Of a stretch of DNA of 64,000 bases, positions 39,416-64,000 are shown in pieces (position 1 is the stretch's first letter; each line of letters begins with the position of its first letter). The notes beneath the pieces were generated by a model. It saw only the letters and a list, made by a program, of their open reading frames with translations. It searched no databases and was not told the origin of the DNA. Origin of the DNA: an uncultured Bacteroidota bacterium (GTDB lineage Bacteria > Bacteroidota > Bacteroidia > Bacteroidales > DTGW01); the NCBI GenBank assembly GCA_963851385.1, contig CAWKPE010000018.1, positions 183,968-247,967 on the forward strand, written 5' to 3'. The translations under genes and the position numbers were made by a program.

Positions 39416-41119
39416 TTGAAAAAACTATTTATAATAATGTCATTTTTTATAAGCTATTTTAATACTGCACAATCCCAGGATCTGGAAAAAATTAAAGATG
39501 CAAAACCTCTAACTGTTGCAGGCGGGATTGGCGCCAGTACAGGCTGGTATGGGTTTCATGGTATGGAAACCAGAAGAGATCCATTAACGTGGAGTATAAA
39601 TGCAAATCTTGATTTTAATATATATGGCGTTTTCGACATTCCTTTTTCCCTCATTATTACAAAAGGAGACCGAGTCTTAAACAGACCTGTTTATTCACAC
39701 TACGGTATTAGTCCTAAATACAAATTTATAACTGCCCACCTGGGTTATAGAAGTATGAACTTTTCTTCTTACTCATATTCCGGGCTTACTTTTCTTGGAG
39801 GTGGAGTAGAAGTAAAACCTGAAAAATCAATTTTTAGCTTCAGTTTTATGTATGGCCGGTTTAATGAAGCTATTCCCGTAAATTTTGCAACTGGTGACGT
39901 CACAAATGTTGCTTATGCAAGATATGGATGGGGAACTATGATTGGCATTGGCAAAAGTAAACACCATGTTGATCTGATACTGTTTAAAGCAAAAGATGAC
40001 ACGAGTTCAGTACATCTTAACCCGGATTCAATAAATAAAGTTAAACCACAGGAAAATTTAGTAATGGGAATTATTACTAATAATCAAATTGGCGATAATA
40101 TAAATCTCAAACTGGAATACACGACCAGTTATTTATCTACAGATATTACCTCACCTGCGCGTAAATTTTCCGGATTTTGTATAGCCAATTATTTAAAAGG
40201 CCTTTTCACTCCCAGGTTTTCGACATCAATTAAAAATGCCATAACCGGCGGCCTCAATTACCAGGGAAAAGGATATTCATTTGGTGTTGCCTATAAATGG
40301 ATAGATCCTGAATATAAATCTCTTGGTACATCTTATTCAGAAAATGATGTAGAAGACTGGACTGTAAATGCAACCAAAAGCCTGATAAGTAATAAGCTTA
40401 ATATTAGCGGAAGTATTGGAACTCAAAGGAATAATCTGGCCAACAATTTAAAAAACACCAGCAGGAGAAACATCTATTCTTTAAATTCTTCATTTGCTGT
40501 TAATCAAAATCTGAATTTTGGCCTGACTTATTCAAATTTTTCTTCCAGCAATGCACCTTCTGTAGTTGATATGAATGATTCTATTAAGTATATTCAAACC
40601 ACTACAAACAAAGGAATAAATGTTAATTACTCTAAAGGACTGGAAAAAACAAATCACAATATTTCATTCTGTTTTAATATGCAAAATGCAAATACATTGA
40701 ATCAAAACGGAACTGAAGCCGTCAGTAATAATACAACTGTAACATCAGGAACTCTTTCTTATAGCATTACGCTAATACCTATAGAACTGTCTATAAATTC
40801 AGCCGTTAATTATTCAAAGTTCAAACAGGATTCCGTTCAAAGTCTTACAGTCGGACCAACGTTAGGTGCCAGCAGGAGTTTCTTTAACAAAAAAATAAAT
40901 ACCAACCTGTCCTTCTCTTTTTTAAGACAGGACAACGGCTTGAATTCCAATAGCAATGTAACAGTACTGAATTTTTCTGTTTCCTACAGTTTCCTGAAAA
41001 ACCATAGTTTAAGCCTGAACAACGCAGTTTCATTTAATAACTCAAGGGATACTTCCGGAAAAAAGAAATCAAGTGAACTAGTGGGAAGCATTAGGTATTC
41101 ATACAACTTCAGTAAATGA
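39416..41119 (+). CDS. predicted outer-membrane beta-barrel protein (family not recognised); first gene of the large cluster
   Basis: TTG start with signal peptide (KKLFIIMSFFISYFNTAQSQ). 567 aa of alternating-polarity, Gly/Ser/Asn/Tyr-rich segments. Aromatic-rich C-terminal strand IRYSYNFSK. Confidence 0.55.
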   Translation: MKKLFIIMSFFISYFNTAQSQDLEKIKDAKPLTVAGGIGASTGWYGFHGMETRRDPLTWSINANLDFNIYGVFDIPFSLIITKGDRVLNRPVYSHYGISPKYKFITAHLGYRSMNFSSYSYSGLTFLGGGVEVKPEKSIFSFSFMYGRFNEAIPVNFATGDVTNVAYARYGWGTMIGIGKSKHHVDLILFKAKDDTSSVHLNPDSINKVKPQENLVMGIITNNQIGDNINLKLEYTTSYLSTDITSPARKFSGFCIANYLKGLFTPRFSTSIKNAITGGLNYQGKGYSFGVAYKWIDPEYKSLGTSYSENDVEDWTVNATKSLISNKLNISGSIGTQRNNLANNLKNTSRRNIYSLNSSFAVNQNLNFGLTYSNFSSSNAPSVVDMNDSIKYIQTTTNKGINVNYSKGLEKTNHNISFCFNMQNANTLNQNGTEAVSNNTTVTSGTLSYSITLIPIELSINSAVNYSKFKQDSVQSLTVGPTLGASRSFFNKKINTNLSFSFLRQDNGLNSNSNVTVLNFSVSYSFLKNHSLSLNNAVSFNNSRDTSGKKKSSELVGSIRYSYNFSK

Positions 41120-41120
41120 T

Positions 41121-63900: not shown

Positions 63901-64000
63901 TATGAATTTGCCACTAATCCTGCTAACTACCCGACAACTTTAAGTTCCAAACCGAAATTTATCAGAGATATATTATCATGTGGCAACGGGAAAAACGATT
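54946..64000 (+). CDS. giant exported protein, more than 3018 aa, 3' end beyond the window; function unknown
   Basis: I translated every 60-nt line from ATG 54946 to nt 64000 in this frame and met no stop codon. It has a signal-peptide-like N-terminus, five ~350-aa internal repeats and a hydrophobic helical hairpin near nt 61063-61230. It is not in the supplied ORF track, presumably because it has no in-window stop. Confidence 0.85.
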   Translation, partial: MIIKNKIISSFKTIQTSSFCSKLLIGWFICFSIMPDLFSQDQAITFKFYIDKLNALIDKNNLTSQANRVFVLDCRYDYITGNSSSSAENANINNQLLDANNNKYAKNNIEIYYIKLNALVNNHGIDKIKIDDANGKTTKEIAMPYYSTYDPGVLAKTVYNYSQVSNKGKYAKDAILIFEYLKYDRIDEYGILHYSVSCNYAFCLPPYYSGYYQKIDNYVKSAANTGLNVNDRNFIVTGFLNGLISLFNFNKDQIGPYQTDEVMQQQMDNEVVQMALYIQNKIKDPKNNKKHIFIENYKNTNDELYLLNDDQRISIENSISEIPADQKIYVISKKINIPLTAKQEQEHDYDNRIQEFEEKVVEKVCNDPDYYCGLNKATTTFIILPYYGYEDELSNPIWRIFYGYYSPITLTNTSISPHSIDATGSPTIDLNYIDNIISCIVPKRTLDYYQQKLDAAFANNYVMPQSNNEYVLGDDVGNSQKERDDLSAKLSTYSGVVPYVVLINEKYLSNEDKTKSAAEIAKWLVENNVSKISKININGFVIIYKPSIDNDGSEKNTLEKNFGFYTGTKLSGFDEDLNTLLQQEFSNKNIDVNFALIGKFLDELEKFKIYLPPDNYYGSPKQTRVLNEEIDDELETLIPIFEDFNRNPSVHIYKDDLSVKKNCISPVDEASIEDLVKRLNSEGKTAYIISKKINTPLLNIDAFNYYTQKAMEKAKKIINFSNPQLTLILLPYYNYNSKTYFNYAYDNYNLFITETKVNIAEGENPYNLNSPSTIMYTEEQPEIDVQLVKKALAVLSECPVLTKFDDFASSINNAVAQNSHLDPTDMNFVIGGCPLEMLDINKIIQSYIIDITKKVQSDNLNGTNKVNTYVVLFDKKYEYNNIAEELYNKISDETIKDKLLIIARVPVTDAKDEFNYYFYTSNKISGFDDYIKDNIFDPDKKYGDDYFAKTKTSVNDLCELFKTLESSGLLYQNRVSDKEIKDEANKLVDDFLKNVSPANKHWYFDNNFKCYPNNLSEFFSDASNIEQAEAFETNINLLSNIYNKSFYIVLQEISSPLTCNEQLNTFNKYAEQEFKSPDGTVKNIDKTDYAVLLIPYYKYSTVNSYGTINEEIDYYPNLCANNINFRNGNIPESIIIKSGKQDINIINEDFINNILANIVVERSPENYQKELDWLIDNNTKQNKYKKYVVGNSAVKKDWNSDFYTSIQNSNSFNNLNYYCVLIDKEDIDPNEVVNYLIDNSKISKEYGLLLAYNPSYTKGEKYAVRSGVFSNRLDSKFSVAVGNVTDNVDNPFEYLTNATSAINGILSSGYVGEEKKIYTPEERETEVQSFVDYFNDKFNKNPNQFVYTDIDNLNLDNFKDKLLYLSLLGGKQVYILRKQTSISILASEVNDFIKEISEKLDIKSIINSTNNLSNSVIIILPYHIYNDPVNNDQLTTKTFHGYYAGENIQFASVINSMITEKFDADKSLHYINDIINSINDKAIGTYSDQLNNLVSYNTGKNINEKVYLINNNWFEEFEDFNNTNNAIREMPYLNRYFDYYAIFDRQQNLDKVNMQKSVESIFDNVLLSPKQQGILQLVSPYNMSSVCTGVTKTSPELVNDNIRTQAINTALGTTPDNPYKYKFVEQFTNTINTDMSGPYLAPDDQYAGYTPYNGVCDYDYSKETLTPYVNSFVNWLNQELNNNTPDNYIISDDPDIPFKQISNVKALYNDRFKNFSDYDSKQIYIISKELDFPLKEQNLQDFVSDVFNKIELKNDKSNTGFIFMLRYKCNKNGVRNAVYRTTCTYICGDNIIIAKQIGESNNESPDNYKFDEQYPLHVYTQIYKTCKIFGYFITPTGDVFFKQFDTKTAGRPAIVNLSIFVDPDIIDGSSNINSQIYNFTNNYKKYYDYFNQLSSEQQIPIESTDDQITIEQIPSYKENYLKMITWMHQDGVLAQNTGGSYNGKLNSLDKYVELTDFKFSLPTGYIFSQFLIKEKAIKNHHKDIMCYTFQNHTFKGYGLSDAFISILKHCPPEDFKTVTFSDDEVYYKIVDWESVFYTSLGIASIPLSIAGLGIIPDIIFLAYAIEKQDFLQIALSMAGMPFSLGQVLEAIGKGLPFLTIKNLEQIASLYGLTIEKNEAGYIIRFSGNELAYCTENKLTLIGSFGNGLTVGQNYIFGQLKSDCEFLNFIKDNNGNLNEAIECLSLRCQKYSTDINFGLPKIFSKSLPDYGNLSNLQNQINKFKIGLINLNLEPKVFAQRLAIFKYRLVNTFGEDFYKYDKVAGLEAALNQYYPNQEARDIINYIEFNNNAKWIFDNDTYTLMLGDDEILKLGINASNSSGANSSEIISTLTLDGQEKKLIAVGFETDGPAQTRYFLKPVNEAGNASVEVIDYSKIKINDEFEELGSSTQIENTFTFKYSSSNTLYDNPEIVKDIITNKLNSSSINEIKIDVTDNPKTLIYVRNGMLNNVPDNEILNNLLSDDKIIETSEFKSVKAIQDGPDIYFALDKAGWNEKIEYLNSIFNKTLSKDETAELIEILNNDNSMYQLFAKIEKDEEITKMAKSWQSLYKISGNTDEKHFLINNAELLEVFNNSNEQDWLLNKLSNISSENLPEIITIATTLNQFPKESSIFFTILEKSGVKMSVNENKIILNDDFSGWSETYVSSATIENIDNIDDDPATPILICAGKGPDNSPIENAVADLPNTSEDVFIGGINVTDDITFESNPGYTQVHDNFTSVIYNAIDRFGNKKVVKSFGINSMDGRAINELRQTYPNSSDLEVAKTLPEYEKMKNKGYELSEVRRESGKIKLIYVPDLNVQLDLISQEIFGMGMDDLKISGLDLKYNGSNIELINLKLNNKIADVVINGNSSEIRISGESINGKVLNPLTSQYYNIDNSVNIYGAYDAKLNDFVNLIKDKDGNIMFRSTKDGILFPAESGKVWDFVEVEKVGNEFKYSVKPKDVNKSTYFGYSVYDEPSKSVSFDISVKDKLPAIKDGTKGHGIASLVYEFATNPANYPTTLSSKPKFIRDILSCGNGKND

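Follow-up and report, generated by a model that had tools for sequence, protein, structure and literature searches.

A putative type IX secretion-associated surface module of Bacteroidota centred on a predicted outer membrane β-barrel and a TANFOR-like giant protein

The sequence analysed in this work is a 64,000-nucleotide stretch (hereafter the window) of contig CAWKPE010000018.1 from the assembly of an uncultured bacterium of the order Bacteroidales (GCA_963851385.1), the last part of which is occupied by seven co-directional genes for exported proteins (Table 1). The first gene encodes a predicted outer membrane (OM) β-barrel and the second a giant protein whose N-terminal region is related to the TANFOR domain of a class of polymorphic toxins of Bacteroidetes described by Jana, Salomon and Bosis (2020; PMC7073777; TIGR02542). 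Our analyses indicate that genes for these two proteins are closely linked in a wide range of Bacteroidota, where they are often accompanied by genes for Fn3-repeat proteins, phage tail-fibre-like (collar) proteins and PKD-rich type IX secretion system (T9SS) cargo.

The inter-genic gaps of 1, 19, 77, 24, 0 and 38 nt reported in the initial annotation for this forward-strand cluster were reproduced, but only when genes 4 and 5 are read across frameshifts; the count of seven genes was likewise correct, although the interruption of the reading frame in these two genes had been missed. Alignment with the intact 303 amino acid (aa) orthologue from the closest relative (GCA_963986415.1) puts gene 4 in frame 3 as far as position 49241 and, from 49291 onward, in frame 1; its true stop codon is at 49456-49458, and the break is located at or near an A5 run (49287-49291). 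The corresponding alignment of gene 5 with an intact 1450-aa orthologue shows frame 1 as far as 50253 and, from 50291 onward, frame 2, and the break, which is upstream of the sorting domain of the protein, falls outside any homopolymer. The two frameshifts are about 1 kb apart in adjacent genes, and the longer neighbouring genes (5.2 and 9 kb) are unbroken. The housekeeping genes upstream of the cluster are full length, which indicates that the assembly is not generally indel-ridden. The frameshifts in the collar and PKD genes could be either real decay or assembly errors, and the module in this genome may be partly decayed or mis-assembled. For gene 7, which runs off the window, the probability of a stop-free open reading frame (ORF) of this length at the local base composition is about 2e-115.

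A signal peptide or anchor had been assigned to every product of the cluster, and all seven N-termini are consistent with this when read by eye. The family searches of the window proteins (against Pfam, NCBIfam and PHROG) confirmed the domains that had been named, viz. fn3 (gene 3), Collar (gene 4), and, in gene 5, five PKD domains with a type-A Por_Secre_tail domain. The four other products had been said to match nothing known. In these three databases none of them has a match; for the 1729-aa protein, however, the statement proved wrong, its N-terminus being homologous to the TANFOR domain.

Table 1. Features of the cluster and its leader (positions in the window) and PorP/SprF genes of related loci (positions in the locus named)
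Feature	Position	Strand	Characteristics
AT-rich leader before the barrel gene	38646-39415	+	770 bp, 23.5% GC
Direct repeat in leader	38939-38982		21-nt unit ATCAAATGAAAGAATTACAAC, x2.1
TAnnTTTG box, Bacteroidetes-type	39003		After the direct repeat; motif match alone
Gene 1, predicted OM β-barrel	39416-41119	+	567 aa, TTG start
Gene 2, TANFOR-like giant exoprotein	41121-46310	+	1729 aa
Gene 2, TANFOR-like N-domain after the signal peptide	41193-42020		aa ~25-300
Gene 2, conserved middle region	42021-43871		aa 300-917
Gene 2, variable insert	43872-45182		aa 918-1354; low-complexity and amphipathic helix
Gene 2, conserved all-β C-terminal domain	45183-46307		aa 1355-1729
Gene 3, Fn3-repeat secreted protein	46330-48363	+	677 aa; Pfam fn3
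Heptamer array	48354-48419		Perfect (TAATGAC)x9.4; overlaps the stop codon of the Fn3 gene; 21 nt between its end and the collar ATG at 48441
Gene 4, collar protein, tail-fibre-like	48441-49458	+	~338 aa once repaired; frameshift between 49241 and 49291
Gene 4, unrepaired ORF	48441-49295	+	284 aa
Gene 5, PKD-rich T9SS cargo, type-A sorting domain	49483-53812	+	~1440 aa once repaired; frameshift between 50253 and 50291
Gene 5, unrepaired ORFs	49483-50319; 50144-53812	+	278 aa; 1222 aa
Gene 6, secreted protein	53813-54907	+	364 aa
Gene 7, giant protein	54946-64000	+	>3018 aa, ORF open at window end
PorP/SprF with C-terminal SPOR/OmpA peptidoglycan-binding domain	L019 8468-9928; L023 8565-9959; L053 8483-9970; L071 8384-9955		Between CHU_C cargo and barrel

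The prediction that gene 1 encodes an OM β-barrel is confirmed by an AlphaFold2 model, computed from an alignment of 50 sequences, which has a mean predicted local distance difference test score (pLDDT) of 86.4 and consists of 26 strands spanning nearly the whole mature protein, with neither a plug nor a periplasmic domain. The only Foldseek matches of this model are to generic large barrels at 8-10% identity, the best being MtrB (template modelling score TMq 0.51), the ushers FimD (0.44) and PapC, LptD, SlpA and SprA. Of these, MtrB, FimD/PapC, LptD, and SprA are the best structural analogues, and each encloses a second protein or lets one through. MtrB has 26 strands and sheathes MtrA, LptD has 26 strands and is plugged by LptE, and the FimD/PapC ushers have 24. 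The modelled barrel resembles these proteins in strand number and size, and its lumen would accommodate a folded domain or a polypeptide in transit; it differs from them in having no profile relation to them, no plug and no usher N- or C-terminal domains, and in being encoded without a chaperone, cytochromes or an LptD jellyroll. No Usher or PapD family match was found in the window proteins, so that the link to chaperone-usher systems is one of generic barrel similarity to FimD/PapC, and a profile search of the barrel against the PDB gave nothing significant. Its family of Bacteroidota proteins comprises more than 518 homologues, all annotated as "hypothetical" and without a Pfam domain, most of which end in a Y-x-Y-x-F β-signal of the kind typical of substrates of the β-barrel assembly machinery (BAM). 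Judged from its sequence, the barrel falls outside the PorP/SprF, usher and Omp85 families and is not a known T9SS component.

For the 1729-aa protein encoded by gene 2, our searches identified 62 homologues, of which about 45 are full-length orthologues, and the weaker matches share the first ~300 residues only and match TIGR02542 of NCBIfam; one of the latter carries HINT/intein-type pretoxin modules. Its N-domain (aa 10-300) matches P0169 and P0172 in BLASTP at E values of 7e-29 and 4e-27, and both of these proteins match TIGR02542. In other genomes, 58 large proteins encoded beside barrels were compared with the same model, and 27 match it (best E value 2e-46); the orthologues P0152 (from Flexithrix dorotheae) and P0161 match it at 6e-6 and 5e-8, below its 67-bit cut-off. 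These similarities suggest that the 1729-aa protein is homologous to TANFOR proteins and represents a divergent subfamily. Its N-terminus reads MIMIKKHYSRIITFLLLLLLGNIFLSSQVAS, a Sec signal peptide by inspection.

The protein belongs to the commonest subtype among its relatives, which has four regions (Table 1); in the window protein, amphipathic helices are followed by a conserved all-β C-terminal domain. This domain of 375 aa is conserved in different orders, and its AlphaFold2 model (pLDDT 88) contains about 25 antiparallel strands. A search of this fold against the PDB, which is poor in AsmA-like structures, and BFVD gave no match above a TM score of 0.31, and its Foldseek matches to the ApoB100 belt and vitellogenin are weak; the region is described here as a new domain. 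The variable insert that precedes it is missing from the Fulvivirga orthologue, and the profile of the insert family weakly matches apolipoprotein A-IV (E 4e-4). Apart from this signal, sequence and profile searches of the 1729-aa family against the PDB returned nothing significant. The weak lipoprotein-like matches of the insert and the C-terminal domain together hint at binding to a lipid surface.

The association of these two genes is not limited to the window. Look-ups that started from barrel homologues of 52% and 34% identity recovered, in the same order, genes for a barrel, a large protein, an Fn3 protein, one or more collar proteins and a PKD protein with a C-terminal sorting domain (CTD). 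A scan of one genome per species, for which an alignment of 10 barrel sequences served as query (the 50-sequence version being too diverse), identified 80 further barrel loci in Bacteroidales, Cytophagales, Saprospiraceae, Flavobacteriales, and Sphingobacteriales. Of the 70 loci from other genomes that have enough downstream sequence, 52 have a TANFOR-like ORF as the first one on the same strand after the barrel. Among the 37 loci with full 10-kb flanks, a TANFOR-like gene is present in 30, as against a PKD-rich gene in 19, an Fn3 gene in 14 and a collar gene in 11, which indicates that the constant core consists of the barrel and the TANFOR protein and that the others are frequent accessories. 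The association also holds in the opposite direction: starting from three TANFOR proteins of differing architectures (P0172, P0170, and P0178), a barrel homologue was found directly upstream in all three cases (33, 29, and 28% identity), and at the P0178 locus the barrel gene overlaps the TANFOR gene by 17 nt. In one related locus (L005) a gene for a 133-aa protein of the 23S_rRNA_IVP family (9512-9913) lies between the barrel and TANFOR genes. Barrel loci also occur in records labelled as non-Bacteroidota (L041, CP034120.1; L082; L016; L034; and L050), viz. the complete genome of Glaciecola amylolytica and metagenome-assembled genomes (MAGs) of Halioglobus, Hydrogenedentes, and Chlorobiota.

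The order of genes 1-5 recurs in distant groups (Bacteroidales, Cytophagales, Saprospiraceae, and Flavobacteriales) at 30-50% identity, and all seven genes are found in the same order in GCA_963986415.1, where genes 4 and 5 are intact. This conservation supports the earlier view that the cluster is a functional module and no chance juxtaposition. The question had also been raised whether the barrel, 1729-aa and giant genes occur together; the first two do so widely, but the giant gene accompanies them in the closest relative only. The idea of a dedicated barrel partner for a giant protein is supported, the partner being the 1729-aa TANFOR-like protein.

The two members of the pair have also diverged together. 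Pairwise divergences of the barrels and of the adjacent TANFOR N-domains are strongly correlated (Mantel r = 0.87, reached by 0 of 2000 permutations), and among seven paralogous pairs within a single Saprospiraceae MAG r is 0.70. This pattern shows that the two genes have been inherited and duplicated together; specific pairing would be consistent with it but is not proven by it. The Saprospiraceae MAG JBGTQJ01 contains nine barrel loci (L042, L048, L060, L063, L066, L068, L069, L070, and L078), seven of which (L060-L078) have a TANFOR-like protein of more than 3000 aa after the barrel and two of which (L042 and L048) end at the barrel; these copies look like an arsenal of diversified loci.

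The barrel can be traced in the published record of the TANFOR class, where it is left unnamed. The table of the original paper lists proteins of 548-588 aa without recognised domains directly upstream of TANFOR genes in Tannerella forsythia, Flexithrix, Lewinella, A37T11, and Chryseolinea; a signal peptide is predicted for the 561-588-aa proteins of Flexithrix, Lewinella, A37T11, and Chryseolinea flava, and none for the two T. forsythia entries (PMC7073777). The 548-aa protein of T. forsythia overlaps the downstream TANFOR gene by 17 nt (PMC7073777), which is the same overlap as that found here. In Flexithrix dorotheae a 561-aa protein lies upstream of the TANFOR gene and Fn3 and Collar proteins lie downstream of it (PMC7073777), and the Flexithrix orthologue of our 1729-aa protein is itself in the published list, with the same gene order. 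The Chryseolinea flava locus has a BaCT toxin gene downstream (PMC7073777), and this row of the table is the only case of a toxin gene near a barrel-sized neighbour of TANFOR. The paper makes no mention of a barrel or porin, leaves the ~570-aa upstream protein undiscussed, and proposes the T9SS as the export route (PMC7073777). Our reading of the literature on TANFOR follow-ups, on PF26696/PTL_trimer and on new Bacteroidota secretion systems found no description of the barrel either. The suggestion in the initial annotation that the apparatus is undescribed therefore needs to be divided: the family of domain-less OM proteins and its tight linkage to TANFOR genes appear to be undescribed, but a paper of 2020 (PMC7073777) had already described the TANFOR family, its polymorphic-toxin nature and the Fn3, PKD, and Por_Secre_tail proteins of its neighbourhood.

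In common with the published TANFOR toxins, the window locus encodes a very large protein with an apparent Sec signal, after which comes an N-terminal domain that may be judged TANFOR-like from its homologues; it also has a host belonging to the T9SS-bearing Bacteroidota, and Fn3, PKD, and Por_Secre_tail neighbours (genes 3 and 5). It differs from them in that its large protein ends in a conserved all-β domain, without a variable toxin or a downstream immunity gene, and in that this protein alone does not reach the TIGR02542 model.

Among the accessory proteins, homologues of the Fn3 protein hold the same position in many related loci. The collar protein consists of a signal peptide, NGN-type β-helical repeats and a C-terminal phage tail-collar/fibre-tip domain; it matches Pfam Collar and PHROG tail-fibre families, and once repaired it matches the solved trimeric tail-fibre chains 9nxk_A and 6ov6_A across the frameshift. 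Gene 5 encodes five PKD_4 domains, an Ig_7 domain and a Por_Secre_tail domain, the last of which (aa 1144-1219 of the 1222-aa ORF) scores 40.9 bits against PF18962 (cut-off 27) and 47.3 bits against TIGR04183 (cut-off 23). These scores identify the gene 5 product, at the level of its predicted domains, as a bona fide type-A CTD cargo of the T9SS.

Links to the T9SS are also seen in relatives. In many Cytophagales loci a PorP/SprF protein with a SPOR or OmpA fusion is encoded directly before the barrel (Table 1) and is itself preceded by a PKD or Ig_7 protein that carries a type-B (CHU_C) sorting domain, and in L005 an SprB-repeat CTD protein lies upstream. The type-A CTD of gene 5 and the PorP/SprF and CHU_C genes of the Cytophagales indicate that the module is embedded in T9SS biology, and the earlier description of it as a self-contained apparatus does not hold. 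No SprB repeats, CHU_C/TIGR04131 CTD or PorP/SprF match was found in Pfam or NCBIfam searches of the eight window proteins. The resemblance to SprB/SprF adhesin modules lies in the CHU_C and PorP/SprF-SPOR/OmpA pair that the Cytophagales relatives have directly upstream of the barrel and in the SprB-repeat protein of L005, whereas the window has no PorP/SprF gene or SprB repeats, its CTD is of type A rather than type B, and its barrel is no PorP/SprF homologue.

The two last genes of the cluster have a different distribution. Neither the 364-aa nor the giant gene has a homologue in 86 related loci, and both have a counterpart in GCA_963986415.1, where a 349-aa protein at the equivalent position is 35% identical to the 364-aa protein (E 4e-72) and a syntenic giant of 4,265 aa is 29% identical to ours at the N-terminus (E 2e-23). 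They are most simply regarded, from this distribution, as a clade-specific addition outside the widely conserved core, recurring only in the closest relative examined. At its N-terminus the giant protein bears a signal or anchor, and it contains five modules of ~350 aa in tandem and a single hydrophobic segment (aa 2040-2066); BLAST detected no internal repeats in it, and sequence and profile searches against the PDB gave nothing significant. An exhaustive HMMER search with aa 1819-3018 against 1.84 billion representatives retrieved two proteins, neither with a Pfam domain. A word-indexed whole-protein search with the giant returned zero matches, itself included, which is a false negative given the syntenic 4,265-aa homologue (compared at L088 24432-25154) and hence no evidence of orphan status; negatives of such searches are unreliable for very long, compositionally biased proteins. 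The idea that its ~350-aa modules are TPM-like phosphatase-fold repeats was dropped when a ten-unit profile found nothing in the PDB.

On the basis of these results, we interpret the locus as a T9SS-associated TANFOR-type surface/effector module whose core is a two-partner-like pair of barrel and TANFOR protein, a reading to which we give about an even chance of being correct. The proposed mechanism extends to the transport or anchoring of the TANFOR protein by the barrel, the topology of the pair and the roles of the accessory proteins. The barrel would be placed in the OM by BAM, and the TANFOR protein would be exported by Sec, carrying a TANFOR-like N-domain that is the part common to the whole family. 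The barrel would then recognise the TANFOR domain of its cognate partner, the N-domain serving as an address and the barrel as a conduit or socket, and would either thread the protein outward or retain it in its lumen. The rest of the TANFOR protein, which is polymorphic and toxin-ended in other family members, would in this way be displayed or released at the surface. The T9SS would export the PKD-rich protein through its CTD, and the Fn3, trimeric tail-fibre-like collar and PKD proteins would probably form or decorate an exposed structure and bind a target surface. The stronger form of this proposal, that the barrel and the TANFOR domain constitute a previously unrecognised OM export pathway of Bacteroidota ("barrel plus N-terminal address domain"), unrelated to Omp85/two-partner secretion (TPS) and carrying giant exoproteins including TANFOR toxins, alone or with T9SS-delivered fibre/PKD target-recognition proteins, is put forward more tentatively, and we judge it somewhat more apt to fail than to hold.

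The architecture of the pair invites comparison with type Vb (two-partner) secretion, the hallmark of which is an Omp85-family barrel of 16 strands with POTRA domains together with a TPS domain on the exoprotein. As in the TpsB/TpsA and CdiB/CdiA pairs, a barrel gene lies beside the gene for a giant exoprotein with a conserved N-terminal domain and a C-terminus that can be a polymorphic toxin, and the pairs duplicate and diverge together. The present barrel, in contrast, is modelled with 26 strands and has no POTRA domain and no Omp85/ShlB signature, the N-domain is TANFOR and not TPS, and the gene set includes T9SS cargo; no window protein matches Bac_surface_Ag, ShlB, POTRA or TPS in Pfam or NCBIfam. 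The likeness is thus one of logic only.

Several observations weigh against this interpretation. The window's own 1729-aa protein gives no TIGR02542 match at E<=0.1, and its membership of the TANFOR class is therefore transitive, as far as the alignments allow it to be judged, and rests on homologues. Neither a toxin domain (Pfam, NCBIfam) in this protein nor an immunity-like gene was detected, the next gene being that of the Fn3 protein, so that effector delivery may not apply to the subtype of the window protein; a Pfam scan of five non-T_C TANFOR proteins that lie beside barrels likewise found no toxin domain. Five loci have the order barrel-Fn3-collar-PKD, with Fn3 next after the barrel and no TANFOR gene between. 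TANFOR loci of Flavobacteriaceae have a 450-aa PKD lipoprotein upstream and no ~570-aa protein (PMC7073777), which implies that the barrel is non-universal or is located elsewhere in those genomes. Adjacency and co-divergence are also to be expected from joint inheritance and duplication. Lastly, two of the seven genes are frameshifted in the present sequence.

The most serious alternative, which we consider improbable, is the export route hypothesised in 2020 for TANFOR proteins at large: the T9SS itself would export the TANFOR-like protein, e.g., as a passenger of, or docked onto, the PKD or SprB-like cargo with a CTD that is encoded nearby, and the barrel would be no translocon but a surface anchor or attachment site for the assembled complex, or would have another role. 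Domains of the Fn3, PKD, SprB, and Por_Secre_tail types are over-represented around TANFOR genes, and a T9SS is present in more than 95% of the genomes that have TANFOR (PMC7073777). The type-A CTD of gene 5, the CHU_C cargo and PorP/SprF genes directly before the barrel in Cytophagales and the SprB/CTD protein upstream in L005 all agree with such a route. However, the TANFOR-like protein carries no CTD of type A or B, and across the loci with full flanks the TANFOR partner is more constant than the CTD neighbour (30 of 37 against 19 of 37). A plug-less barrel of 26 strands would also be oversized as a simple anchor, and its nearest structural analogues enclose or pass proteins.

A second alternative, which we find doubtful, is that what the cassette assembles is a filament or adhesin of the cell surface, non-toxic and used in attachment, in gliding or to bind prey or particles, with the barrel as its base, the TANFOR-like, Fn3, collar, and PKD proteins as its subunits, and the toxin-bearing relatives as derived forms. 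The commonest subtype of the large protein indeed has a conserved C-terminal domain in place of a variable toxin and is followed by no immunity-like gene, the accessory proteins are Ig-like repeat proteins and a fibre-tip protein, and SprB-type and CHU_C proteins occur in related loci. Yet the present data contain no sign of polymerisation, the window proteins are without SprB repeats, the toxin-bearing members are those that defined the family, and nine or more divergent copies in one MAG are more suggestive of an arsenal than of a structural element.

A third explanation, in our estimation quite improbable, likens the pair to TamB-TamA or LptA-LptD as an envelope-spanning lipid or membrane device, in which the large protein would be periplasmic with an uncleaved N-terminal anchor, lipid binding would fall to its amphipathic helices and long β-sheet, and it would be docked to the barrel by its C-terminus. 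It draws on the apolipoprotein A-IV match of the insert, on the long β-meander of the C-terminal domain with its ApoB100 and vitellogenin matches and on the strand number that the barrel shares with LptD, but all of these similarities are weak (TM <= 0.25) and the helical insert, absent from Fulvivirga, is dispensable. No AsmA/TamB/DUF490 or LptD/LptA jellyroll signature was found in the window proteins, the toxin-type modules of relatives must exit the cell, and the accessory proteins are typical extracellular modules. That the seven genes are merely a chance run of unrelated surface-protein genes is hardly credible, for although the 364-aa and giant genes lack counterparts in the 86 related loci and the upstream regulators vary between genomes, the order of genes 1-5 persists in distant orders, that of all seven is kept in the closest relative, and the barrel and TANFOR N-domain co-diverge.

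The presence of a tail-fibre-like gene does not make the cluster part of a phage. Like phage tail fibres (Collar, Gp10_C; PF26696 PTL_trimer in relatives), the gene 4 product matches trimeric tail-fibre tips at its C-terminus; unlike them, it has a signal peptide and is encoded in a chromosomal cassette without sheath, tube, baseplate or capsid genes. PHROG matches in the cluster are limited to the Fn3 and tail-fibre/collar modules of genes 3 and 4. The family searches bear out the earlier statement that no canonical PorP/SprF partner, usher, type VI secretion system (T6SS) component or phage structural gene was seen: the cluster has none of the first three and no sheath, tube, baseplate or spike gene, gene 4 being tail-fibre-like only. 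Its gene content accordingly marks it, by predicted families, as neither a phage nor a contractile injection system (extracellular contractile injection system, T6SS or tailocin).

The AT-rich leader before the barrel gene and the heptamer array in the gap between genes 3 and 4, both noted in the initial annotation, are present as described (Table 1). The leader matched no Rfam family, and a search for the Bacteroidetes promoter pattern across the window performed no better than chance. Each TAATGAC unit of the array introduces stops in all three frames, and the array is absent in the closest relative, where the gap is 8 nt; its length may vary, or it may act in regulation. The end of an independent short-read contig (L087) falls exactly at the array. 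An exact look-up of the window's 1729-aa protein retrieved one 10-kb short-read contig only, and exact look-ups of the 364-aa protein from the starts M1, M3, and M8 were unsuccessful.

Directly upstream of the leader (37077-38645) is the gene for a protein with response-regulator receiver, PAS, and adenylate/guanylate cyclase domains, and relatives carry other regulators at that position, viz. a hybrid kinase/AraC protein or a CHAT-TPR protein. It is preceded (33658-36679) by genes for a Fib_succ_major-domain protein and for a protein of 709 aa that combines bacterial Ig domains with a caspase domain (Peptidase_C14) at its C-terminus. Further upstream (22723-24084), a DDE transposase gene (DUF772 and DDE_Tnp_1) lies between the enolase and pyruvoyl arginine decarboxylase genes.

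The route by which TANFOR proteins cross the OM was left open in 2020, with the T9SS as a guess, and the barrel provides a testable candidate for an export or anchoring component, encoded by a neighbour of ~550-590 aa that was visible but uncommented in the table of the original paper (PMC7073777). The present analysis defines a large family of domain-less OM proteins and a new all-β C-terminal domain. If the proposed pairing is correct, it would represent a new kind of OM protein-export pair for the Bacteroidota, with a mechanistic tie to T9SS cargo and to targeting proteins that resemble phage fibres, and it would have a bearing on how bacteria of gut, oral, marine, and soil communities compete with one another.

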